From the NCBI GenBank assembly GCA_018645265.1, contig JABGOS010000088.1:11083-75082 (forward strand): DNA of 64,000 nucleotides, read 5' to 3'. The position numbers were made by a program, and so were the translations under genes. How positions within the stretch are numbered: the first letter of the stretch is position 1; every line of letters starts with the position of its first letter. Positions 10,752-63,658 of the stretch are shown here, in pieces. The notes under the pieces are model-generated. The model saw nothing but the letters and a program-made list of their open reading frames with translations. It was not told where the DNA came from and did no database searches. This DNA comes from Deltaproteobacteria bacterium (GTDB lineage: Bacteria > UBA10199 > 2-02-FULL-44-16 > JAAZCA01).

Positions 10752-12106
10752 TACATGCCTAATGTATTTTTAATCCAAGCACTTACACCCCATATGCTAT
10801 CAATATCCTTTAAGGTAATAAGAACCATAAATGACATCAAAATGATGAATCCAGTCTGATTTGCGATAGATCTGAACTTTGCACTTAGTGGCTTCCTCTG
10901 GATCGCCTCGATCCCAAGGAACATGAGATGTCCACCATCAAGCACAGGAATAGGCAGAATATTCAAGATTGAGAGCTGTAGGCTTAAAAAAGCCATAAAA
11001 TAGAGAAAGTGCCCAAGCCCTGATGCAGCAGCCTGTGCGGACACCTTTGCGATTACAATGGGGCCACCCAGCACCTTATAGGATAGCTTCAGTGTAATCA
11101 GCCTGTACAGAACTTCAAACGTAAGCTTAGCTAGTTTTATATCCTCTTTAACTCCCAGAATAATTGAGTCTACGAAACCATAACGATAGACTTTCTGAGG
11201 ACCGATATTTCTTCCATTCGTATATATACCGACCACCCATCTACCGCTCTCTGCGCTATAGGTCGGCTGAATCTTGAAATTCTCTCTTGTACCATCATCC
11301 CTACTCACCGAAATTGAAGTCTCCTCACCTCCGGATGCATTGACGCTAGCAGAGAAGTCATAGAAGTCAGCAACTGCCCTACCATCATATGACGTGATGA
11401 GGTCACCCGGTTTCAAACCCGCCTTTTCAGCCGGGCCCCCAGGCACCAGCGAACTGACCTCGGCCTTATAGCCGAGAAAGAAAACCGGTTCGACTCCCAG
11501 ATATCCACCTTTTATTTCAGGCAGTTCACCTACGACGACCTCCTTCTCAATTACCTCCCCATCCCTCATCACCTTCAGTGAGACATTCTGACCGGGACTG
11601 AGCAAAATTCTATTGATGGTGTCAGACCACAGCTTCATCTCAGCACCATCAATAGAAAGGATTTTATCGCCCTTCATGAGTCCTGCCACCTCTGCCGGTG
11701 ACTCAGCTTTGATACCAATGAGAACTGGAGGTTCATGTAGATAGACCGGTTCTGTACGACCTATCATAAAAACTATCGGCATCAGGACTAAACAGAGCAC
11801 CATGTTCATAATTGGACCGAACGCTACGACCTTCGCCCTTGCCCAAACGCTTTTCTGTGCAAACGCCTGAGGATCATCTGCTCCCTCATCGGTAGGATCC
11901 TCTCCGAGCATTCTCACATATCCACCAATCGGAAATAATGAAATACGGTAATCCGTATCACCCTTTTTGAATCCAATAAGCCTAGGACCGAATCCCAAAG
12001 AGAAAGCGTCGACGCGTATGCCGGCACGCTTTGCCATTATAAAATGCCCCAACTCATGTATGAAGATTAATATTCCAAGTGTTATTACGAAGTAGATAAA
12101 AGTCAT
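10751..12106 (-). CDS. rseP: RIP metalloprotease RseP (site-2 protease, two PDZ domains)
   Basis: HELGHF zinc motif in the first TM helix, PDZ repeats, and a C-terminal LDGG motif. Sits downstream of dxr as in many bacteria. Confidence 0.85.
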   Translation of the reverse strand: MTFIYFVITLGILIFIHELGHFIMAKRAGIRVDAFSLGFGPRLIGFKKGDTDYRISLFPIGGYVRMLGEDPTDEGADDPQAFAQKSVWARAKVVAFGPIMNMVLCLVLMPIVFMIGRTEPVYLHEPPVLIGIKAESPAEVAGLMKGDKILSIDGAEMKLWSDTINRILLSPGQNVSLKVMRDGEVIEKEVVVGELPEIKGGYLGVEPVFFLGYKAEVSSLVPGGPAEKAGLKPGDLITSYDGRAVADFYDFSASVNASGGEETSISVSRDDGTRENFKIQPTYSAESGRWVVGIYTNGRNIGPQKVYRYGFVDSIILGVKEDIKLAKLTFEVLYRLITLKLSYKVLGGPIVIAKVSAQAAASGLGHFLYFMAFLSLQLSILNILPIPVLDGGHLMFLGIEAIQRKPLSAKFRSIANQTGFIILMSFMVLITLKDIDSIWGVSAWIKNTLGM

Positions 12107-52534: not shown

Positions 52535-53170
52535 CTATCTTTTTCTCTTACATATCGAAAGCAGATTCCTATCGTTTACAGTTGGGTAACCCCATGCCCT
52601 TTCAAAGATCTCCTGGCTCACCTCGAAATTTGGCATCGGGGGCATCCCGGGGTCATGTAGTATAATCCTATCACCGACGATATCGCATATAACTATAAAA
52701 TGACCTGCATACCCTTCGTGACCATGAAGTGCAGCAGAGTTTAGATTAATGATAACAATATGCTGGCTCTTCAGGAGAGCTTCAATATCATCAAGCTGTG
52801 GAATGCGATATTCGATTGGAGCTTTATCAACGAATTCCTTAGCAATCGTTCTTTCCTCTTCAACATCGCTATTTTCTATCTGCGCCCTGCCTACTTCCTC
52901 ACCATATCTCTCTAGCAGATATTCACCACCTCTATCCACAAATGCCCGATAATCGAATTCTTCGATCAGGCCAATCTCCAACCCCTGATCCATCATCCAT
53001 AACATTGCAGATGTGGGCCAAGTCCATTTACCAGGTTTCTTGTTTGAGATCTCGTCGAGGTATTCATAGCTAAATTCCTTCTCTGGGATCAGCATTCCAA
53101 GTGCCATCTTGAGCGCAGCCTGAAAACAATGAGTGCCATCACCTGTATTTGGATAAAAAGGAATTTTCAT
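52535..53170 (-). CDS. Papain-like/C39-like cysteine peptidase domain protein
   Basis: N-terminal GDGTHCFQAALKMAL (a Cys nucleophile in a C39-like context) and a downstream His (GHFIVICD). 211 aa. Confidence 0.45.
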   Translation of the reverse strand: MKIPFYPNTGDGTHCFQAALKMALGMLIPEKEFSYEYLDEISNKKPGKWTWPTSAMLWMMDQGLEIGLIEEFDYRAFVDRGGEYLLERYGEEVGRAQIENSDVEEERTIAKEFVDKAPIEYRIPQLDDIEALLKSQHIVIINLNSAALHGHEGYAGHFIVICDIVGDRIILHDPGMPPMPNFEVSQEIFERAWGYPTVNDRNLLSICKRKR

Positions 53171-53193
53171 GAAAGATTAATTCAACCGCCCAG

Positions 53194-53266
53194 TGGGCCT
53201 GGCAGGAATCGAACCTGCGGCCCTCTGCTTAGGAGGCAGATGCTCTATCCCCTGAGCTACAAGCCC
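53194..53266 (-). tRNA. tRNA-Arg (anticodon CCT)
   Basis: The reverse complement folds as acceptor GGGCTTG/CAGGCCC, anticodon loop CTCCTAA, T-loop GGTTCGATTCC. No encoded CCA. Confidence 0.85.
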
Positions 53267-53878: not shown

Positions 53879-54616
53879 TTATTTCCTCTGAGGCAGGAAA
53901 AATAGGGGATTGCGGGCTTTTTGTCCATTACGAATTTCAAAATGCAGGTGAGGCCCTGTTGATCTTCCGGTCCTCCCAACATACGCGATCACCTGGCCCT
54001 TTTTCACAGTTTGTCCTTTTTTACTCTTATTACTCTTATTATGCGCATACGCCGTAAAAAAATCATCCCCATGCCTGATCAGAATAAGATTGCCATATCC
54101 ACGCATCTTACCGGAAAAAACTACACGGCCCGACCCAGCAGCCTTAATAGGCGTTCCGGATTTCGCCGCTATATCAATTCCATCATGACGCCTCCCCCCC
54201 CTTATTCCAAATGGAGAAGTAAGCTTACCGTCGACAGGCCATATAAACTTGCCATGAAAAGTTTTAATACTCTTGGAACGACTCTTCTTCTTACTACTCT
54301 TTGCATATCTCCTACTCTCCTTAGCTGACATCCCGAGAGGCAATTTCTTATAGCCAGCTGTCTTTTCTTTTGGTGGAAGATAGAGACGCTTTCCGGGCTG
54401 GGCATCGTTGGGGCTAAATATATTATTATATTCAGCAAGCTCCTGAAGATCGACATTGTAAGCCCTTGAGATTCTCCATATGGATTCTCCCGATCTTACA
54501 GTGTGATATTTACCTCGCTTATCAAATGAAGTAGCACATCCAGAGAAGGTCATCGCAACGAAGGTTCCGATGAATAGAATCAGCAGCATGCGCAATGTTA
54601 TTCCAGACCTAGTCAT
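53879..54616 (-). CDS. nlpD: LysM-domain M23 family murein endopeptidase lipoprotein (NlpD-like)
   Basis: Lipobox FSGC. LysM ([19 protein letters not shown]). M23 HxxxD and HxH region (HDGIDIA...HLHFEI). Confidence 0.8.
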
Positions 54617-55391
54617 TCACATTCCACCCCTGATCACCTACTAGTTTTACAAACCTACAATGAGTTACAACCCTTTTATCATATCTCTCGCCCTTCCGGG
54701 TAATCACTTCCAATTTCTGAAGATCCTTATCCCCCACTGGTATTACCAACATTCCACCATCCGTAAGCTGCATCTGCAACGCCTCCGGAACACACGGAGC
54801 ACCAGCCGTAACGATAATTCTATCGAAGGGTGCTTTATCAACCCAACCGAGAGTCCCATCCCCAACTTTCAGACTTATATTTTTATACTTCAAATTCGAA
54901 AGAACCTGCCCGGCCCTACTCGATAGATCGCTCAAGCGTTCAATCGTATACACCTCCTTAGCCAGCTCAGCTAATATCGCCGCCTGATACCCGGAACCTG
55001 TACCTATCTCCAGCACACGTTCTACACCTGTCAGGTGTAGCTCCTCCGTCATCATCGCAACTATCAGAGGCTGAGAAATCGTCTGGCCGAAACCGACCTG
55101 TAACGGACGATCTTCATAGGCCTGATATTCCATTCCAGGGCTTACAAAGAGATGCCTTGGAACTCTACTCATCGCGGCAAGAATTTGATCATCCTTAATC
55201 CCCTTAGGGATAAGTTGCTCAGTGACCATTCGCCGTCTTGCAACCTCGAAAGGGTCCCTCTCTTCACCATAGCGTGTCGAATATTTTTTTTTGCTTATTA
55301 AATTGGCCGTTGATGTTTTATCATCACGTGATTTGGAAGATTCCTTCTTCATGTGATATCGGAGCACGCGTGTTAAAATCTTCTTATCCAT
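54609..55391 (-). CDS. pcm: Protein-L-isoaspartate O-methyltransferase (with ~50-aa basic N-terminal extension)
   Basis: RRRMVTEQL..G.....L.AM..VPRHLFV and SAM motif VLEIGTGSGYQAA. Sits in a surE-pcm-nlpD cluster. Confidence 0.85.
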   Translation of the reverse strand: MDKKILTRVLRYHMKKESSKSRDDKTSTANLISKKKYSTRYGEERDPFEVARRRMVTEQLIPKGIKDDQILAAMSRVPRHLFVSPGMEYQAYEDRPLQVGFGQTISQPLIVAMMTEELHLTGVERVLEIGTGSGYQAAILAELAKEVYTIERLSDLSSRAGQVLSNLKYKNISLKVGDGTLGWVDKAPFDRIIVTAGAPCVPEALQMQLTDGGMLVIPVGDKDLQKLEVITRKGERYDKRVVTHCRFVKLVGDQGWNVND

Positions 55392-55405
55392 CTAAAATAT
55401 TCCCC

Positions 55406-56158
55406 TTAAATATTCCAGCTCGATAACTTTTTTAATGTAGGCTTATCGGTTATATCGACACGTAGTGGCGTAATCGAAATGTAATCTTCACGAACTGCAT
55501 TGCAATCTGAACTGGGAATATCTTCAAAACCATTTTGATCCCCACCAATCCAATAGTATTTTCTACCCTTAGGATCGACCTTGTCGACTATTATATCACC
55601 GTAGTTTCGCTTACCCTGTTTTGTAATTTTATATCCCAAGATTTCCTTTTCTGGAAGATCTGGAACATTCACATTCAGTATAACCCCCCTAGGCAACCCC
55701 TCCTTCAGAACCTTTTTCGAAACCCTCTTTGCAAATTCAGCGGCCGATTTAAAATGTTTCCCATTTTTGAAAAGTAATGACATCGCTATTGAGGGAATAC
55801 CCTCAATTCCACCCTCATATGCTGCGGAGACGGTTCCGGAATAGTGCACATCATCGCCGATATTTGGACCATGATTGATTCCAGAAACTATGAGATCCGG
55901 TTTCTCATCCAAGATTTCGTTCAAGGCCAACATGATACAATCAGTAGGAGTTCCGCTGACTGAATAGATATCTTTAGCCAGCTTATTAATTCTAAGCGGA
56001 AGATGCAGCGTGATAGAATGGCTACAGGCTGACCTCTGCTGATCCGGAGCTACAACGATCACACGGCCCAGCCCTTTAAGTGCCCTCGCTAGGATCTTCA
56101 AACCCTTGGCCTGCACTCCATCATCGTTCGATACTAATATCAGAGGTTTTCTCGTCAT
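55406..56158 (-). CDS. surE: 5'/3'-nucleotidase SurE
   Basis: ILVSNDDGVQAKGL N-terminal motif. Confidence 0.9.
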   Translation of the reverse strand: MTRKPLILVSNDDGVQAKGLKILARALKGLGRVIVVAPDQQRSACSHSITLHLPLRINKLAKDIYSVSGTPTDCIMLALNEILDEKPDLIVSGINHGPNIGDDVHYSGTVSAAYEGGIEGIPSIAMSLLFKNGKHFKSAAEFAKRVSKKVLKEGLPRGVILNVNVPDLPEKEILGYKITKQGKRNYGDIIVDKVDPKGRKYYWIGGDQNGFEDIPSSDCNAVREDYISITPLRVDITDKPTLKKLSSWNI

Positions 56159-56346
56159 AATAATGAAGCCGGCCAGCTGACCGGCTTAACCTAAAAAAGT
56201 CAATATTTATGCTAAGTTACGATACACCACCTAAAGTGTCAAGATCAAAGCTCCCCCCACGTTGTGCGCTAACGCGGATCCTCTAAAACTTTGGAGGTTG
56301 CCCATGATGCTTGCTTTTTTTCGATCCTGTGGTAGACGCCCTCGCC

Positions 56347-57381
56347 ATGAGCGATTCATATAAAAAATCCGGTGTGGATATAGACGCCGGCAACAAGTTC
56401 GTTAATAACATTAAAGATTTAGTCAAAAGTACGCATATCCATGGCGTCATCTCTGAAGTCGGCGGGTATGGGGCACTCTTTGCACCGAATATCTCTGAGA
56501 TGAAGGAGCCAGTCCTTGTATCTGGAACAGATGGCGTGGGCACTAAGCTCAAAATTGCGATCCAAATGAAAAAACTGGATACAATCGGAATTGATCTTGT
56601 GGCGATGTGTGTAAACGACATCGGTTGCCTTGGAGCAAAGCCCCTTTTCTTTCTAGATTATCTTGCTACATCGAAGCTTGAGCCAGAGCTGCACGCGGAT
56701 GTAGTTAAGGGAATTGCCGAAGGATGCAAGATGGCAAAATGTGCTCTCATAGGTGGTGAAACTGCTGAGATGCCGGATTTTTACAAAAAGGGAGATTTCG
56801 ATATCGCCGGCTTCTCCGTAGGAATCATCGACAGAGAGAAGATTATAGACGGAACTGATATTGGAGTTGGAAATGTTATTGTCGGCTTTCACTCCACAGG
56901 TCCCCACAGCAATGGCTATTCCTTAATCAATAAAGTCATCAAAGATTCCCAATTGGATTTACAAAAGAAATATGAGGGATTCGAAGAAAGTTTAGGAGAG
57001 GCCCTCCTCGCACCCACGAAAATTTACAGTCATCTTATTGAAAACCTCCGGAAGATTTTCAACATCAAAGGAATAGCGCATATCACCGGCGGTGGATTCT
57101 GGGAGAACATCCCTCGGATACTCCCTCGAGGTGTTCAGGCTGTAATTACAAAGGGCAGCTGGGAAGTCCCCCACATATTCCGTTTTATCCAGAAGCACTC
57201 CAATATGGATGAGGAGGAGATGTTCCGCGTATTCAATTGCGGCATAGGAATGGTCCTAATTGTTGATAAGGATCATGCCGAAGATCTTACCCAGGCAGCA
57301 TCTACAAACGGTATCCAAGCTACTATAATCGGCGAAACGAGGATTATGCCTGAGAATGATAAAGCAATTATTATGGAGTAA
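56347..57381 (+). CDS. purM: Phosphoribosylformylglycinamidine cyclo-ligase
   Basis: SYKKSGVDIDAGN N-terminus. Start moved to ATG 56347 (MSDSYKK). The track ORF begins 36 nt upstream. Confidence 0.9.
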   Translation: MSDSYKKSGVDIDAGNKFVNNIKDLVKSTHIHGVISEVGGYGALFAPNISEMKEPVLVSGTDGVGTKLKIAIQMKKLDTIGIDLVAMCVNDIGCLGAKPLFFLDYLATSKLEPELHADVVKGIAEGCKMAKCALIGGETAEMPDFYKKGDFDIAGFSVGIIDREKIIDGTDIGVGNVIVGFHSTGPHSNGYSLINKVIKDSQLDLQKKYEGFEESLGEALLAPTKIYSHLIENLRKIFNIKGIAHITGGGFWENIPRILPRGVQAVITKGSWEVPHIFRFIQKHSNMDEEEMFRVFNCGIGMVLIVDKDHAEDLTQAASTNGIQATIIGETRIMPENDKAIIME

Positions 57382-57386
57382 TCTCG

Positions 57387-58016
57387 ATGGTGAATAAAAT
57401 TAATCTTGGAATCCTAGTCTCCGGCAGCGGCACCAACCTTCAGTCCATCATAGATAACTGCAAATCCGACAGGATCGATGCTTTAGTCAAGGTTGTGATT
57501 AGCGATAGCCCTGAAGCCTTTGCCATTGAACGAGCGAAAAAAAATAACATAGATACAGTTACTGTTGTTAGAAGCGAATTCGACAGCAGGAAATCATTTG
57601 AGAAGAAGATTGTAGAGATTCTACAATCACATAAGGTTGAGCTGGTCTGTTTGGCCGGTTTCATGAGAATCATAGGGAAAACCCTCTTGGGCGCATACCC
57701 CAACCGCATCATCAACATCCACCCAGCATTACTACCATCCTTTCCAGGGCTGGACGGCCAAAAACAAGCCTATGATTACGGTGTAAAAATCGCTGGATGC
57801 ACCATGCATTTCGTAGATGACAAGGTCGATCACGGTCCGATCATATGTCAATCATCGGTGCCAGTCATGGAGGATGATACGCCGCAGACCCTCAAAGATA
57901 GGATCCTGGAAGAGGAGCATAGAATCTACCCACAGGCGATACAGCTATACGCCGAAGGAAAACTAAAAATTAAAAACCGACGTGTTTACATCCTGAACGA
58001 AAGTGATAAGGGGTAA
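57387..58016 (+). CDS. purN: Phosphoribosylglycinamide formyltransferase
   Basis: GILVSGSGTNLQ, and HPALLPSFPG folate-binding motif. Confidence 0.85.
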   Translation: MVNKINLGILVSGSGTNLQSIIDNCKSDRIDALVKVVISDSPEAFAIERAKKNNIDTVTVVRSEFDSRKSFEKKIVEILQSHKVELVCLAGFMRIIGKTLLGAYPNRIINIHPALLPSFPGLDGQKQAYDYGVKIAGCTMHFVDDKVDHGPIICQSSVPVMEDDTPQTLKDRILEEEHRIYPQAIQLYAEGKLKIKNRRVYILNESDKG

Positions 58017-58044
58017 GGCATAAGTTCATAAAAGGGGGGAGTTC

Positions 58045-58623
58045 ATGAGAAAGATTTTTTTCTGTTTATCAGCTATCGCAGTTGTTTTGATAAGTGGTCA
58101 AGCTTATGCTGGATCTGCCAGCGGCAACTTTTCTGTGGGCCTTGGACCTCTTGGTAATATTTACGTAGTCGATTCAAATCCTCAGCTTGATATGGGTGCC
58201 GGTGGTTATGTCTTTTTCGACTATAGATGGTCACCTCAATTCTCCACACAATTTGGAGTTGTAGTTACAACTCAGGATGGAACTGGCATATCAAATGGAG
58301 ATAATGGAATTGAATTTCTGGGCATCCCTACTTTCGACTTAAAATTCTACATATTCTCAGAACCTTCCAGATGGGATCCATACGGTCTTATAGGAATGGG
58401 AGTATACGCTGTAACCGAAGGTTCGGCAAAGAACGGCACAACGGCTGTCGGCATTGGAGCAAATCTGGGCTTGGGCACCGATTTCTATATTACTGAAAAG
58501 TGGTCTGTCGGACTTGCAGCTATCTTTCGCTCCATCGGCCTTATAGACTCAATGGGTGGGAGCAACAACGGCACCGCGCTCTTCCCATTCTCCATGATGG
58601 GTAACGTAGCATATCATTTTTAA
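58045..58623 (+). CDS. Small outer-membrane beta-barrel protein (OmpW/OmpA-barrel-like)
   Basis: Signal peptide (AVVLISGQAYAGS). Eight predicted amphipathic strands. Ends VAYHF. Confidence 0.5.
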   Translation: MRKIFFCLSAIAVVLISGQAYAGSASGNFSVGLGPLGNIYVVDSNPQLDMGAGGYVFFDYRWSPQFSTQFGVVVTTQDGTGISNGDNGIEFLGIPTFDLKFYIFSEPSRWDPYGLIGMGVYAVTEGSAKNGTTAVGIGANLGLGTDFYITEKWSVGLAAIFRSIGLIDSMGGSNNGTALFPFSMMGNVAYHF

Positions 58624-58632
58624 GATTTTTAA

Positions 58633-59400
58633 ATGCTACAACGGATATCTATGACTCTCAAAGTCCATACAAGAAAGACGATAACGTTCATGATACTAAT
58701 CGCGTTATCGTTTTTTTTCTTTTCATGTTCCAGCAAACCTAAGAGCTACGCTGAAAAAAGAATGTTGATGACAGAGAACCTCATCAAGAAGCGAGGCATC
58801 GAAAATCCAAGGATCTTAAAAGCCTTTCAAACAGTACCCAGAGAAGAGTTCGTTCTGCCTAAGTACAAGGAGAAAGCCCATGAAGACATTGAGGTCCCAA
58901 TAGCCTTCGGAGAGACATTAAATAGGCCATATGAAGATGCCGTAATGCTTGCCTCAATGGAGATCGAACCACATCACAAGGTCCTTGAAATCGGCACCGG
59001 CACTGGCTATCACACCGCCCTTCTCTCGCAATTGGCGGATAAAGTGTACACAATTGAAATTGAACCGGAATACGCAAAGAAAGCGAAAAGCAACTTTGAA
59101 AAATTAGGCTATAAGAATATCTTCCCTAAAACCGGCGATGGATTTGCCGGATGGCCTGAATTTGCACCTTTTCACAGGATAGTGATGATGTGCAGCCCTT
59201 CAGAAATCCCCATACCTCTCAAAAACCAGCTTGCAGAAGATGGACTGATGATACTCCCGCTTGGGGGTAGCGAGCGTTTTCAGGAACTTTTCCTATACAC
59301 CAAAAAGAACGGTGAATTAATTAAAGTCAGAAGCATAGCACCGACCACCTTCTCTCCAATGAAGGGCCAGATTCTTGAAATGGAAGACCAGAATCCATAG
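58633..59400 (+). CDS. Protein-L-isoaspartate O-methyltransferase paralogue with N-terminal export/lipoprotein-like signal
   Basis: The Pcm core (FQTVPREEFV, VLEIGTGTGYHTALL) is preceded by a basic n-region, the hydrophobic ITFMILIALSFFFF, then SCSS. Confidence 0.7.
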   Translation: MLQRISMTLKVHTRKTITFMILIALSFFFFSCSSKPKSYAEKRMLMTENLIKKRGIENPRILKAFQTVPREEFVLPKYKEKAHEDIEVPIAFGETLNRPYEDAVMLASMEIEPHHKVLEIGTGTGYHTALLSQLADKVYTIEIEPEYAKKAKSNFEKLGYKNIFPKTGDGFAGWPEFAPFHRIVMMCSPSEIPIPLKNQLAEDGLMILPLGGSERFQELFLYTKKNGELIKVRSIAPTTFSPMKGQILEMEDQNP

Positions 59401-59406
59401 TCCCAC

Positions 59407-60501
59407 TTAAGCCATATTCGGAGCATCTGCTTCAGACTGTTCCTGTGAATTTTTCAATCGATATACATAGACTAATATTTCCGCAATCGCAGCGTAGAGG
59501 TCCTCTGGAATTTCATCGCCAATGTCCAATTCAATCAAAGTCCAAGCAAGTGGGACATTCTCAATAATGGGAATGCCATAATCCTCGGCGTATTCCCTGA
59601 TGGTTTGTGCAAAGAGACGCTGCCCCTTCGCCATAATCTGCGGCGCTGCCATCTCCGAGTCATCATATTTGATCGCTATAGCCAACTCTGTTGGGTTGGT
59701 AATCACCGCATCCGCAGATTTCACTGACTGCTTCGTATCGCTCATCGCTAACTCCTGGTGGAGCTGACGTCTTGCACTCTTTATGAGTGGATCACCTTCA
59801 TCCTGTTTGTACTCCCTCTTCACCTCCTCCTTTGTCATCCTCATCTGTTTTTTATAATTCCACCGCTGAACGAAGAGATCGATAATAGCTATCATAATGA
59901 AGACGATAAAAACCTTCACCAAAAACTCCACAAGGAGCTGTGCGGCAAGCGCGCCAGACTGGTCGGGCGTACCCTTCACAGTCAACACGACTTCCCTCAG
60001 CCTATTGGTCACAACGAGATATGCCAGAAGAAAGATGAGGCTCATCTTTGCTATATTCTTTAAGAGCTCCACAAGGGTCGTAATCTTAAACATATTTTTA
60101 AGATTCTCTATGGCATTTATCCTCTTCATCTGGGGCTTCATCGATTCACCGGTAAAGATAGGACCAACCTGGAAGAAGCCCACTGCTATGGCTACCACGA
60201 TCATAACTATCCCAAATGGTATAACGATTTTCACATAGGTCATAAAATTACTGTGCGCTTGTAGGAATAATGTTTCGACATTCAGATCCGGCCTTGAGAT
60301 CAAATTGAAATTGGAGGTCAGCACTCCACGCAGCTGCTCACCGATATACCCCCTCATGAAGAGTATCGTTATGAATGCCGCTATAAGGATTACTATAGTG
60401 TTGAGATCGCGGGATTTTGCGACCTGTCCCTTCTTTCGCGCATCCCGCAGCCGCTTCGGTGTAGCTTCCTCAGTTTTTTCCTGGCTGCTTGATTCTCCCA
60501 T
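59407..60501 (-). CDS. flhB: FlhB/YscU-family type III export apparatus protein (orphan)
   Basis: N-terminal EKTEEATPKRLRDARKKGQVAKS. Four TM segments. The autocleavage-site region reads NPTE in place of NPTH. Confidence 0.75.
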   Translation of the reverse strand: MGESSSQEKTEEATPKRLRDARKKGQVAKSRDLNTIVILIAAFITILFMRGYIGEQLRGVLTSNFNLISRPDLNVETLFLQAHSNFMTYVKIVIPFGIVMIVVAIAVGFFQVGPIFTGESMKPQMKRINAIENLKNMFKITTLVELLKNIAKMSLIFLLAYLVVTNRLREVVLTVKGTPDQSGALAAQLLVEFLVKVFIVFIMIAIIDLFVQRWNYKKQMRMTKEEVKREYKQDEGDPLIKSARRQLHQELAMSDTKQSVKSADAVITNPTELAIAIKYDDSEMAAPQIMAKGQRLFAQTIREYAEDYGIPIIENVPLAWTLIELDIGDEIPEDLYAAIAEILVYVYRLKNSQEQSEADAPNMA

Positions 60502-60684
60502 TCAGTGCTCCTGTATATATTATCGGCAGTGAAGTTACCAAAAATTGCTTCATCCAGCAAGAAATGCCGGCAAAACTGACAAATTGATGTTGCTGACATA
60601 TAAGATTAAATTCTTCTTCATTTTTAGCCCCCCCTGATCGGCCTGGCCTTGCTTTTCTTTAAAAATACCGGTATCTTGCGGCGG

Positions 60685-62742
60685 ATGGCTCAAACGACAC
60701 AAGACAAGCAACCGAGACAGGTAGGCCAGTATTACCTCATGGAGAAGATTGCCCAGGGCGGCATGGCTGAGATCTTCAAGGGGCTCTCCTATGATGTCCA
60801 CGGCATAAAGAAAACGGTTTGTATCAAGAAGATCCTTCCACACATCGCTGCCAGTGAGGAGTTCATCGACTCTCTGATAGATGAGGCGAAGATCGCCGTT
60901 AAACTCGTTCATGGAAACATCGCCCAAACCTATGATCTGGGAAAGGTCGCCGACGACTATTTTATGGTTATGGAATATGTCGATGGCAAGTCACTCTCCC
61001 AAATTCATAAGCGTTGCCTTGCAAAGAAGGAAGTTATACCGATTCATCATCTGGTACACTTTATATCGGAAACTCTCAATGGGCTTGACTATATTCATAG
61101 GAGGACAGATGAGAACGGTCTGCCACTTCATATAGTGCATCGTGACATCAGCCCCCAAAATATAATGGTATCGTATGCAGGTACCGTTAAGATAATCGAC
61201 TTTGGAATAGCAAAGACTGGTTTCAAGGTTGGATCTACCGACTCTGGCATTCTCAAGGGGAAATTCGCATACATGTCCCCAGAGCAGGCACATGGGGATA
61301 CTATAGATCACCGTTCAGATATTTTTTCCTTAGGCATCATACTTCACGAAACGCTGACCGGAAAAAGGCTCTTCAAGGCGGGCGATAGCAGGGAGACAAT
61401 TAGGAATGTGAGGAAGGCAAAGGTCATTCCTCCCTCGGTAATAAGAAATGACCTCCCTGATGAACTTGACCGTATCGTCCTCAAGGCACTCTCAAAGGAC
61501 AGACGACATAGATACAAGAAGGCAGCGGAGATGCACGACGATCTGATAAAGTTTCTATATTCAAATTACCCTGAATTCAGGCCATCGGATGTTGGAACGT
61601 TCGTACAGGATCTTTTTAAGAATGAACTTCAGAACCAGGGCAAGAATGAGGCCGACGCCAAGACACCTTATTTAATCATAGATAGATCAAACTCTGCACT
61701 CGCAGACGATAGTCAATTTGAAGTCACAGGAGCGGCGAAAGCCCCTATCGACCTTGAGGAGTTTATGGTCGAAGAGGATAGTGAATCCGTACCTAAGGAT
61801 ATGGTACCCTATTCCGACAATGAAATGGAGGAATATAGGGATGGACCTGAAATCCCAAAAGAAAGCAAGTTCAAGTACGTATGGGATATTGTAAAACACA
61901 TTAAATATCATCTTTTAGTGATTTTTATAATTGCCATAGTGACTACTCTAGCAGTCATATCCAACAGAAAATCGGAAATTACAGAAGATAATACTGTAGC
62001 TTACACATCAGCAGAAATCATGATCACTACCGAGCCTGCCGATGCATCGATCGTCTTTAACAATAAGCCGATTGGGCAGGGATCCCCTATTACGATGCGA
62101 GATATCGATCCAAATGCTGACCATTTGTTGGTGGTCCAGAAAGAGGGATTCTTCACACACGAAAAACATCTCAATCTAAAACCTGGCGAGTTCTTAAGCC
62201 TCTCCATAGCCCTCAAGCCAAAGCCCCCCATGACATCGGCAATAGAGCTTACAACCATTCCAGAGGGTGCGACAGTTTTTCTGGACAACCGGGAAACTGC
62301 ATACCGCACACCGACAAACATAAAGGATATAGACCCCAAGCGGTCTCATGACATTGGTCTTTTTCTGAGGGGCCATCGTTTTTGGAACAAAAAAATCAAT
62401 CTAAAACCAGGAGAAACAAAATCCTTTGAGATTCAAATGGTCAAAGATTTTGCCACACTCAATGTCGAATCAGAGCCCCCTGGGGCACTCGTCATGCTTG
62501 ATGGCGTTCCAATAGGGCAGACCCCCGTCACAAGGGAAAAACTTGAACCGGATAAGGTTTATAAGGTAGAAGTATGGGTCCAGGGGTATGAGGCAACCAA
62601 GAAGGACTATAAAGCAGTTGCAGGTGTAAAAAAGGGACTTAGGTTCATCCTGAAGAAGATGCCCACACCCGCAGAATTAGAGATGAAGGCTAGGGAAGAG
62701 AAAAGAGAGATGATGCACCAAGAGGAAAAAGATGACCGATAA
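60685..62742 (+). CDS. Hanks-type Ser/Thr protein kinase with TM segment and C-terminal PEGA repeat domains
   Basis: GxGxxA loop (GQGGMAEIFKG), HRDISPQNIMV, DFGIAK, SPEQ. TM segment LLVIFIIAIVTTLAVI. Four or more PEGA-like units (TTEPADASIVFNNKPIGQ...). Start set at ATG 60685. The first 36 nt of the track ORF are probably not coding. Confidence 0.8.
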   Translation: MAQTTQDKQPRQVGQYYLMEKIAQGGMAEIFKGLSYDVHGIKKTVCIKKILPHIAASEEFIDSLIDEAKIAVKLVHGNIAQTYDLGKVADDYFMVMEYVDGKSLSQIHKRCLAKKEVIPIHHLVHFISETLNGLDYIHRRTDENGLPLHIVHRDISPQNIMVSYAGTVKIIDFGIAKTGFKVGSTDSGILKGKFAYMSPEQAHGDTIDHRSDIFSLGIILHETLTGKRLFKAGDSRETIRNVRKAKVIPPSVIRNDLPDELDRIVLKALSKDRRHRYKKAAEMHDDLIKFLYSNYPEFRPSDVGTFVQDLFKNELQNQGKNEADAKTPYLIIDRSNSALADDSQFEVTGAAKAPIDLEEFMVEEDSESVPKDMVPYSDNEMEEYRDGPEIPKESKFKYVWDIVKHIKYHLLVIFIIAIVTTLAVISNRKSEITEDNTVAYTSAEIMITTEPADASIVFNNKPIGQGSPITMRDIDPNADHLLVVQKEGFFTHEKHLNLKPGEFLSLSIALKPKPPMTSAIELTTIPEGATVFLDNRETAYRTPTNIKDIDPKRSHDIGLFLRGHRFWNKKINLKPGETKSFEIQMVKDFATLNVESEPPGALVMLDGVPIGQTPVTREKLEPDKVYKVEVWVQGYEATKKDYKAVAGVKKGLRFILKKMPTPAELEMKAREEKREMMHQEEKDDR

Positions 62743-63658
62743 AAAGAAAAAAGAGATAGATCCACTTCTTCAGAGCGATGAGTTGTCCGAATGCACTGTA
62801 GTAACATCATTGGAGAAGGTAAGTTTTCCAAAGGATGAACGCGCTTACATACTCTTCATTTCAGGCCCCCTAATTGGTAAAATGTACCTTCTTGAAGAAT
62901 CTACAACAATCATGGGCAGGGCTCCGGATATTGATATCTCTATTAGCGATTCAAGAATATCCAGAAAACATCTCTGCATACACCTTGAAACAGGTAAGGC
63001 AATCATTGAAGACATGGGCTCCACCAATGGAACCTTCGTAAACGGTGAGAGGGTTATACGGCGAGTGCTAGAAAATGGCGACAAGGTTCACATATCCAGC
63101 GATACCTTCTTTAAGTTTGCTGTAGGTGATGCGGCAGAAAGAATGTTTCAGGAGGAGATGCACCAGATGGCGAACTACGACGCCGTCACCGGCATACTCA
63201 ACAAACATGCATTCGCAAGACGCCTGAGGGAGGAGTTCAGCTATGCAAGAAGAAGAAAGCACTCCCTCTCACTCATGATGATCGACATAGATTTCTTCAA
63301 GAAGGTCAACGATACATATGGGCATATGGCTGGTGATTATGTCCTAAATGGAGTTGCACAAAGAATCCAAAGCAGCCTTCGTGATGAGGATATTACAGCT
63401 AGATACGGCGGCGAAGAATTTGCAATTATTCTTCGAAATACGGATGCCAAAGACTCGATGATGTTGGCGGAAAGAGTGCGTCATCTGATTGAGGAGAAAC
63501 CCTTCCAATTTGAAGATCAATCGATACCTGTGACAATCAGCGTTGGGGTATCCACACTCAAAGGCGACAACTTCAACTCCGCAAAAAAACTCATTTCTTA
63601 TGCCGATGAGTGCCTATACAAGTCCAAAGCTGATGGAAGAAACCGCGTAACCGCATAA
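62732..63658 (+). CDS. FHA-domain diguanylate cyclase (FHA-GGDEF)
   Basis: FHA core (GR....D.....D..ISRKH...........D.GSTNGTFVNG). GGEEF active site with an upstream RDED I-site-like motif. Overlaps the kinase stop by 11 nt. Confidence 0.8.
   Translation: MTDKKKKEIDPLLQSDELSECTVVTSLEKVSFPKDERAYILFISGPLIGKMYLLEESTTIMGRAPDIDISISDSRISRKHLCIHLETGKAIIEDMGSTNGTFVNGERVIRRVLENGDKVHISSDTFFKFAVGDAAERMFQEEMHQMANYDAVTGILNKHAFARRLREEFSYARRRKHSLSLMMIDIDFFKKVNDTYGHMAGDYVLNGVAQRIQSSLRDEDITARYGGEEFAIILRNTDAKDSMMLAERVRHLIEEKPFQFEDQSIPVTISVGVSTLKGDNFNSAKKLISYADECLYKSKADGRNRVTA

Follow-up and report, generated by a model that had tools for sequence, protein, structure and literature searches.

A predicted PCMT-fold lipoprotein with a remodelled acceptor loop in a Deltaproteobacteria bacterium

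Protein-L-isoaspartate O-methyltransferases (PCMTs, also termed Pcm or PIMT; EC 2.1.1.77; PF01135; structures 3lbf, 1jg1 and 1i1n) are repair enzymes that act on isoaspartyl (isoAsp) residues and use S-adenosylmethionine (SAM). Pcm is cytoplasmic and, in Proteobacteria-like genomes, is typically encoded in a surE-pcm-nlpD(-rpoS) context. The stretch analysed here, termed the window, comprises 64,000 nt of contig JABGOS010000088.1 from a Deltaproteobacteria bacterium (positions 11,083–75,082), and its gene copy at 54609–55391 has both properties. A second gene, termed pcm2, has neither. It resembles Pcm in its family hidden Markov model (HMM) match, fold, SAM motifs, F-x-P segment and core length, but differs in having a lipoprotein signal and an altered loop, and in its position outside surE-pcm-nlpD. 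On balance, pcm2 probably encodes a retooled extracytoplasmic SAM-binding lipoprotein of the methyltransferase fold and not a plain isoAsp repair enzyme. The PCMT family itself is well known; what appears to be new is an exported clade with a remodelled acceptor loop.

The closest relatives of pcm2, at 41–51% identity, are signal-bearing PCMTs that carry the canonical T-I-S-Q-P site, e.g. those of Maribellus maritimus (P0049) and Lutimonas saemankumensis (L080), and the proteins P0127 and P0055. The latter two also share with pcm2 a locus adjacent to flhB and C-terminal ERFQEL...K.GK features. Signal-bearing PCMTs of this type keep the Ser, the Gln and the hydrophobic [IMV]-V of the site, whereas the pcm2 clade has replaced all of them.

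Two described systems show the PCMT fold in other roles. Human PCMTD1/2 (9oma) are non-catalytic isoAsp readers of cullin-RING (CRL5) E3 ligases. They resemble pcm2 in the fold, with a Foldseek match, and in having a substitution in the T-I-S motif. PCMTD1 differs in that Thr is changed to His and a SOCS box is present; pcm2 keeps the Thr, changes the Ser and has no extra domain, and identity is 18%. The PIMT-like subunit of Paracoccus denitrificans complex I (8qby chain t) matches pcm2 in sequence (7.5e-14) and fold (template modelling (TM) scores 0.78/0.89), and represents the PCMT fold in a membrane-associated, presumably non-repair role. However, it is 22% identical, and nothing in the window ties pcm2 to complex I.

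A third group consists of the PIMT homologues of ribosomally synthesized and post-translationally modified peptide (RiPP) systems, which act on L-Asp of a precursor peptide. The graspetide (TIGR04188) and FxLD/lanthipeptide (TIGR04364) enzymes are, like pcm2, PCMT-derived with an altered acceptor. They are cytoplasmic, and pcm2 scores far below their cut-offs (112.9 vs 380 for TIGR04188; 98.4 vs 320 for TIGR04364). No ATP-grasp, lanthipeptide synthetase or precursor gene was found near pcm2 in the window or in related loci.

Fold and acceptor loop of pcm2

The features of pcm2 in the window are as follows.

58651–59400, plus strand: pcm2, predicted PCMT-fold lipoprotein of 249 aa (an alternative ATG upstream, at 58633, would give 255 aa)
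58651–58728, plus strand: predicted signal peptidase II (SPII)-type signal peptide MTLKVHTRKTITFMILIALSFFFFS and lipobox Cys (codon 58726–58728)
58915–58941, plus strand: remodelled acceptor (pre-region I) loop, T-L-N-R-P-Y-E-D-A
58981–59010, plus strand: SAM motif I, VLEIGTGTGY
59044–59064, plus strand: post-I acid, VYTIEIE
59131–59154, plus strand: GDG motif (TGDGFAGW)

By family matches and modelling, pcm2 has a complete PCMT fold with intact predicted SAM-binding motifs. The protein scores 158.8 bits with PF01135 (cut-off 20.3) and 198.8 with the equivalog model NF001453 (cut-off 188); with TIGR00080 it scores 157.8, just below the cut-off of 159.05. The AlphaFold2 model has a mean predicted local distance difference test (pLDDT) value of 88.9. 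Its best Foldseek match is E. coli PIMT (3lbf; E 2.8e-23, TM score normalized to the target 0.92, root mean square deviation 1.5 Å), and other PIMT structures follow. Motif I, the post-I acid and GDG are conserved throughout 123 aligned sequences. In the pcm2 clade (alignment A1), G115, T116, G117, G119, D163 and G164 are invariant and the post-I residue is always E or D. The cleft also keeps its C-terminal F-x-P side, and the protein ends directly after the PCMT core with no extra domain.

The loop that precedes motif I is different. The canonical GQTISQP-x-VA reads GETLNRPYEDA in pcm2, i.e. T-I-S-Q-P-Y-[IMV]-V-A is replaced by T-L-N-R-P-Y-E-D-A. Gap-free HMMER alignments to the PIMT structures of E. 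coli, V. cholerae and P. furiosus pair GQTISQPYMVARM with GETLNRPYEDAVM. The occupancy of the altered positions in 48 clade members and 74 other PCMTs is listed below; residue numbers here and in the other loop comparisons follow the 255-aa numbering of pcm2.

Position 97 (the Ser position): clade Asp 37, Asn 11; other PCMTs Ser 74
Position 98: clade Arg 48; other PCMTs Gln 71
Position 101: clade Glu 45, Asp 3; other PCMTs Ile/Met/Val/Leu
Position 102: clade Asp 30, Asn 16, Ser 2; other PCMTs Val

The Thr of the T-I-S motif stays Thr or Ser (T34/S12 of 48). A scan for differently conserved columns yields four radical changes that are specific to the clade and fall within the pre-region-I loop or immediately ahead of it; the clade changes in this region are E87, R98 and E101, plus D/N97 and D/N102. 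A fifth radical column merely separates clade A from clade B. The clade consensus is T-L-[D/N]-R-P-[Y/F]-E-[D/N], derived from T-I-S-Q-P-x-[IMV]-V, and from these alignments the predicted acceptor cleft of the pcm2 clade is recharged.

The affected residues lie at the substrate site. In human PIMT, residues 57–59 (T-I-S) and 212–216 line the proposed isoAsp site (PMC8275801). In the midge, PIMT paralogues that have Ala in place of Ser60 are reported to be inactive (PMC7565475). In PCMTD1, the change of Thr to His in the T-I-S motif accompanies loss of methyl transfer, and binding of SAM and isoAsp is kept (PMC12590147). The earlier note on this DNA had held that pcm2 retains both SAM and catalytic motifs. 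This is borne out for the SAM motifs (VLEIGTGTGY, VYTIEIE and GDG), but the catalysis-related Ser is Asn. Since the Ser of T-I-S is replaced and the loop lies at the substrate site, pcm2 lacks a defining feature of the repair enzyme.

The possibility has to be weighed that pcm2 is nevertheless the canonical repair methyltransferase in a second version, located in the periplasm or envelope, which repairs isoAsp in envelope proteins with SAM obtained outside the cytoplasm. The NF001453 score above the equivalog cut-off, the PIMT fold, the intact SAM motifs and the retained F-x-P side of the cleft all agree with this, and the carboxylate could still be hydrogen-bonded by an Asn in place of the Ser. 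In addition, exported and fully canonical TISQP relatives are present in many phyla, and the group from which the clade derives may thus have an isoAsp function outside the cytoplasm. However, none of the 48 clade members has the Ser; most have Asp instead, and an Asp would repel a carboxylate. The loss is accompanied by the invariant change of Q to R and the change of [IMV]V to E[DN]. The inactivity of the Ser60-to-Ala paralogues (PMC7565475) and the TIGR00080 score below cut-off point the same way, as does the lack of a known SAM source outside the cytoplasm. Canonical repair is thus quite unlikely.

The N-terminal signal

The N-terminus of pcm2 reads (MLQRIS)MTLKVHTRKTITFMILIALSFFFFS-C-SSKPK. 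The PROSITE lipobox rule PS00013 is {DERK}(6)-[LIVMFWSTAG](2)-[LIVMFYSTAGCQ]-[AGS]-C, with the Cys at residues 15–35 and a K or R within the first seven residues. The pcm2 sequence satisfies this rule from either of its two possible starts, M1 or M7 (Cys32 or Cys26, respectively). As controls, the NlpD of the window passes, and the outer membrane protein (OMP) encoded upstream of pcm2 and the canonical Pcm fail.

Comparison with relatives gives the same picture. The lipobox Cys is invariant in all 37 aligned relatives, with S, A or G at −1 in 36 of the 37 and never Asp at +2; relatives at 47–74% identity almost all have a hydrophobic N-terminus that ends in [SAG]-C. Signal and Cys are in frame in each of the eight loci fetched (L081, L083, L084, L086, L087, L088, L089 and L092). 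In L086 the gene call had started too late, and the signal was found upstream as MRHLFLLTIPIMIFVFAC. The N-terminus aligns gap-free with that of the 74%-identical orthologue L081, with SCSSKPK identical, and over the signal and linker codons the proportion of nonsynonymous differences (pN) is 0.25 against 0.47 for synonymous differences (pS). The altered motif and the signal recur in 48 relatives and hence are no chance feature. In the AlphaFold2 model, a helix at residues 2–23 is followed by a short unstructured tether and then by the domain. At about 15 residues, the hydrophobic region has the usual length of a signal peptide, whereas a membrane-spanning helix would normally be longer.

The start of pcm2 is likely M7 (58651), which gives 249 aa, because the JGI call (P0001) is the same and the closest orthologue, L081, has no upstream ATG. 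A GGA about 10 nt upstream of M7 is common to both genes. The earlier note had placed the gene at 58633–59400; its assignment as a second Pcm homologue holds by the PCMT family match, with the probable start moved to 58651.

A competing explanation is that the signal is an annotation artefact, with translation from M46 (MTENL...) giving a second cytoplasmic Pcm, or, as a variant, that the segment stays uncleaved and anchors a domain that faces the cytoplasm. The NCBI record MBT3181866.1 (= P0121, ‘Deltaproteobacteria bacterium’) is indeed a 210-aa product that begins at an internal Met and lacks the signal, and no strong Shine–Dalgarno sequence precedes any candidate start. Metagenomic calls of several relatives are likewise truncated and start at an internal Met (205–208 aa; P0022, 224 aa). 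Basic residues flank the hydrophobic segment on both sides. On the other hand, the open frame with the hydrophobic stretch and the invariant Cys is found in every fetched locus, L086 included, and the gap-free alignment with L081 and the excess of pS over pN in this segment speak for a translated N-terminus. The length of the hydrophobic region is against an anchor, and distant relatives have signals of the cleavable signal peptidase I (SPI) type. Both variants are very improbable, and the short NCBI call is best seen as an error, since it is contradicted by the comparative evidence on the conserved N-terminus.

The comparisons indicate that the lipoprotein signal of pcm2 is genuine and translated, and not an artefact of start-site choice. 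The signal or lipoprotein-like N-terminus proposed in the earlier note is thereby upheld. The note had also named a downstream Met that removes the signal as grounds for rejection; NCBI chose that Met, but the comparative data contradict it. Export of a pre-folded, SAM-loaded protein by the twin-arginine translocation (Tat) route was considered and rejected: pcm2 has no twin-arginine motif, and RR is not conserved in the clade.

Relatives, descent and gene neighbourhood

The origin of pcm2 is not a recent duplication of the canonical gene. Its product shares 36% identity with the canonical Pcm from the same genome, against 48–51% with signal-bearing TISQP PCMTs of Bacteroidota and other phyla. 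A neighbour-joining tree places the pcm2 clade within signal-bearing PCMTs that have canonical motifs. Nor is the notion of a plain paralogue that keeps the catalytic site supported, given the replaced Ser (Asn here) and the recharged cleft.

A profile search of 1.84 billion cluster representatives returned 4,630 PCMT relatives at E<=1e-30, and the altered motif is present in just one 50%-identity representative among them (P0126, SLNRPF). The clade is therefore narrow. The next-best profile matches, P0127 and P0055, are PCMTs with a lipoprotein signal and TISQP or TISEP. In their loci the PCMT gene lies tail-to-tail with an flhB whose product is 59–60% identical to FlhB of the window, and in L096 the next gene encodes a Ser/Thr kinase 62% identical to that of the window. 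By this synteny, the flhB-adjacent TISQP/TISEP copies represent the same locus in a sister lineage. Since these copies are predicted to be exported yet have TISQP or TISEP, the remodelling would have arisen in an orthologue that was already exported.

Over the whole gene, pN is 0.135 and pS 0.707 relative to L081, and therefore pcm2 appears to be under purifying selection and not decaying. Identities to three orthologues are 74/55/53% for pcm2, 80/69/68% for pcm and 90/83/80% for the OMP. Recent horizontal acquisition was rejected, as pcm2 and the OMP gene, at 0.436 and 0.442 GC, respectively, match the window (0.45) and synteny is deep.

Signal-bearing PCMTs extend well beyond this lineage. 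A genome scan used motif I and the C-terminal FxPMKG stretch as patterns; these matched PCMTs generally, and the 80 best-matching species-representative loci were kept. In 58 of these best 80 loci, the PCMT combines a TISQP-type site of the canonical form with a hydrophobic, SPI- or SPII-like extension at the N-terminus. As the signal was part of the profile, the sample favours signal-bearing forms. The phyla are Planctomycetota, Bacteroidota, Verrucomicrobiota, Acidobacteriota, Chloroflexota, Elusimicrobiota, Myxococcota and others. The altered clade motif was found in none of the best 80 loci. Among 101 immediate neighbours in the 58 genomes, no Pfam family occurs more than three times, and hence the exported canonical PCMTs provide no operon clue. 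No study of a periplasmic, exported or lipoprotein PCMT was found in the searchable literature, where the matches (an FlhB paper, work on the R. sphaeroides surE-pcm operon, and reviews) were coincidental.

Two variants of these proteins may be mentioned. Many signal-bearing PCMTs of Planctomycetota (e.g. L003, L006, L008–L010 and L014–L017) are 400–465 aa long, with a C-terminal extension of about 200 aa after the core. In P0125 (482 aa), a protein with a lipoprotein signal, two PCMT domains are arranged in tandem; one, the first, has GQSMFRPY, with Phe at the Ser position, and the second has the canonical GQTISQPY.

The genes around pcm2 in the window are as follows.

53879–54616, minus strand: nlpD-like gene for a LysM-M23 lipoprotein, followed by apt
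54609–55391, minus strand: canonical pcm (longest open reading frame 260 aa; PF01135 203.7 bits; TISQP at 55068–55082)
55406–56158, minus strand: surE, of the surE-pcm-nlpD cluster
56311–57381, plus strand: purM
57387–58016, plus strand: purN
58045–58623, plus strand: OMP gene (OMP_b-brl, 192 aa; PF13505 2e-11)
59407–60501, minus strand: flhB (PF01312 2.2e-115), convergent with pcm2 at a spacing of 6 nt

The coordinates and gene identities in the earlier note prove correct. Family matches confirm a surE-pcm-nlpD cluster at 53879–56158, all on the minus strand, and pcm2 directly follows a gene for a signal-peptide β-barrel OMP at 58045–58623. The canonical Pcm is above cut-off with both NF001453 (247.1 bits) and TIGR00080 (215.8 bits), has an intact TISQP, and has no hydrophobic stretch at the N-terminus. 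Its longest open reading frame, whose start is uncertain, overlaps nlpD by 8 nt (54609–54616) and includes at the N-terminus about 50 additional aa that are rich in Lys and Ser and not hydrophobic. This extension is present in L081 and missing in more distant relatives (222–235 aa).

The OMP has an SPI-type signal, MRKIFFCLSAIAVVLISGQAYA|G (AYA|G), and a C-terminal Phe (...AYHF). It scores 44.8 bits with PF13505 (cut-off 28.7), and the AlphaFold2 model has eight strands (pLDDT 77.7), with Foldseek matches to OmpW (2f1v), the OmpA transmembrane domain (1bxw), Ail (3qra) and NspA (1p4t). Orthologues are 58–90% identical.

The OMP gene and pcm2 might form a two-gene envelope module, e.g. with the barrel anchoring or presenting the lipoprotein at the surface. 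They are on the same strand at a distance of 9–27 nt, and in the window the interval has no terminator-like site. A promoter and terminator scan of 57300–59700 gave counts within shuffle expectation. The same order is found in L081, L082, L084, L085, L087 and L089. But the pair is separable. In L086, L088 and L092 a minus-strand gene for an M49-peptidase-like protein (570–680 aa) lies between the two; L091 and L093 have purM-purN-OMP without pcm2; and in L096 the TISEP orthologue has flhB downstream and no purN-OMP upstream. The evolutionary rates also differ strongly (80–90% identity for the OMP vs 53–74% for pcm2). Adjacency by itself carries little information, because synteny in the lineage extends over an entire block of more than 10 genes: surE-pcm-nlpD-apt, purM-purN-OMP-pcm2, flhB, the Ser/Thr kinase gene with PEGA repeats, the FHA-GGDEF gene, folD and gcvT. 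Such a module is very unlikely. The OMP gene always follows purM-purN, whether or not pcm2 is present, and the pair is accordingly taken as inherited synteny. By fold and gene order, the OMP is an ordinary OmpW/OmpA-like barrel tied to purMN by descent, and not a partner of pcm2.

The M49-peptidase-like gene is located as follows.

L086:4006–5715, minus strand
L088:3770–5806, minus strand
L092:5656–7629, minus strand
L091:7016–8767, minus strand (just downstream of the OMP gene)

The L086 and L091 proteins have a signal-like N-terminus. With tblastn, no copy was found within the 64-kb window, and the peptidase was rejected as a required partner since the window does without it.

By gene order across these loci, flhB is the neighbour that stays with the exported PCMT most persistently. 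It lies tail-to-tail with pcm2 in L081–L086, L089 and L092, and with TISQP/TISEP-type orthologues in L094 and L096 of the sister lineage, in which other genes lie upstream. FlhB autocleaves through Asn cyclization at an NPTH motif. A functional link between FlhB and pcm2 was rejected as unsupported, as the genes are convergent and the FlhB cleavage domain is cytoplasmic, whereas pcm2 is predicted to be exported. The position of flhB is taken as context only.

Farther out, the Ser/Thr kinase gene with PEGA repeats (60649–62742, plus strand) overlaps by 11 nt the gene for the FHA-GGDEF protein (62732–63658, plus strand). The two are kept beside flhB throughout the lineage, which suggests a signalling pair that leads from kinase to FHA to cyclic di-GMP. 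Just downstream of apt, a tRNA-Arg(CCT) gene (53193–53266, minus strand) adjoins an open reading frame of 211 aa (52535–53170, minus strand) that resembles peptidases of the papain-like or C39 type; the counterpart in L084 is annotated as PF13529 Peptidase_C39_2.

Possible function and significance

Because the serine that holds the damaged residue is lost, pcm2 is probably not a simple periplasmic repair enzyme. A retooled lipoprotein would work as follows. The protein would be exported by the general secretory (Sec) pathway, lipidated at Cys26 and cleaved, which would leave the domain on a tether of about 6–10 residues at the periplasmic face of the membrane. In E. coli, lipoproteins without Asp at +2 are sorted to the outer membrane; if the same rule applies, pcm2 would go there. 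The domain would still bind SAM or a close analogue, but would no longer position the isoAsp α-carboxylate through a Ser hydroxyl. Non-canonical handling of isoAsp is suggested because this hydroxyl is replaced by Asp or Asn beside an invariant Arg and two acidic residues. The Arg-plus-acid set should select a different acceptor. Such an acceptor could be a carboxylate presented in another way, either on peptidoglycan or on an envelope protein, or else a nucleophile that is not a carboxylate. Instead of a methyltransferase, pcm2 may also be a recognition module without turnover.

Several points weigh against the retooled lipoprotein as set out here. Export is read from a pattern rule and from conservation, and the basic residues on both the n- and c-flanks of the hydrophobic segment make the positive-inside rule ambiguous. 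The neighbour-joining tree is a crude one. No other gene of the block evolves as fast as pcm2, and relaxed constraint would fit this as well. The amide of the Asn in pcm2 could still hydrogen-bond a carboxylate, and some isoAsp activity may persist. Lastly, a catalytic role requires an extracytoplasmic SAM donor. We know of no SAM pool or source outside the cytoplasm, and therefore any catalytic model needs a donor supply yet to be recognized. The puzzle of SAM supply raised in the earlier note is thus real, and with signal-bearing PCMTs in 58 of the best 80 loci it is wider than the window. Action on envelope proteins before export, offered in the note as a way around it, is unlikely for a Sec/SPII precursor.

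A pseudoenzyme would avoid this difficulty, since a lipoprotein whose PCMT fold serves only for recognition, of a ligand or of damaged protein, or as a structural subunit needs no periplasmic SAM turnover. The loss of the catalysis-related Ser, the rapid evolution of pcm2 relative to its block and the degenerate first domain (SMFRP) of the tandem exported P0125 can be read in this way. So can the presence of the PIMT-like complex I subunit (8qby_t) and PCMTD1 (9oma) among Foldseek and HMMER relatives; PCMTD1 binds SAM and isoAsp without methylating (PMC12590147). Yet no SAM-pocket residue varies within the clade, and this speaks for a bound nucleoside ligand. In addition, pcm2 retains the Thr that PCMTD1 has exchanged for His, and no conserved partner gene indicates a complex. 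A purely non-catalytic role is unlikely.

With respect to the earlier note as a whole, the exported protein stands, and the canonical repair enzyme and the OMP partnership are unsupported. As a wider and tentative proposal, exported PCMT folds in many phyla may point to extracytoplasmic SAM supply and methylation, or to SAM-independent sensing of isoAsp, with pcm2 re-engineered for a new envelope acceptor. If pcm2 is such a re-engineered lipoprotein, it would represent a previously undescribed specificity of a periplasmic methyltransferase.

There is also a problem of annotation. An equivalog HMM names pcm2 a repair methyltransferase despite the missing Ser, and the NCBI call removes the export signal.

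The pcm2 clade and its sister lineage, with the same locus, the same export signal and different acceptor sites, constitute a natural experiment, and because they differ in the acceptor site at a shared locus, the question of the acceptor can be addressed by back-mutation. It is usually assumed that SAM-dependent enzymes are cytoplasmic and that isoAsp damage in envelope proteins is irreparable. A conserved exported branch of PCMTs either calls one of these assumptions into question or reveals a new, non-catalytic use of the fold.

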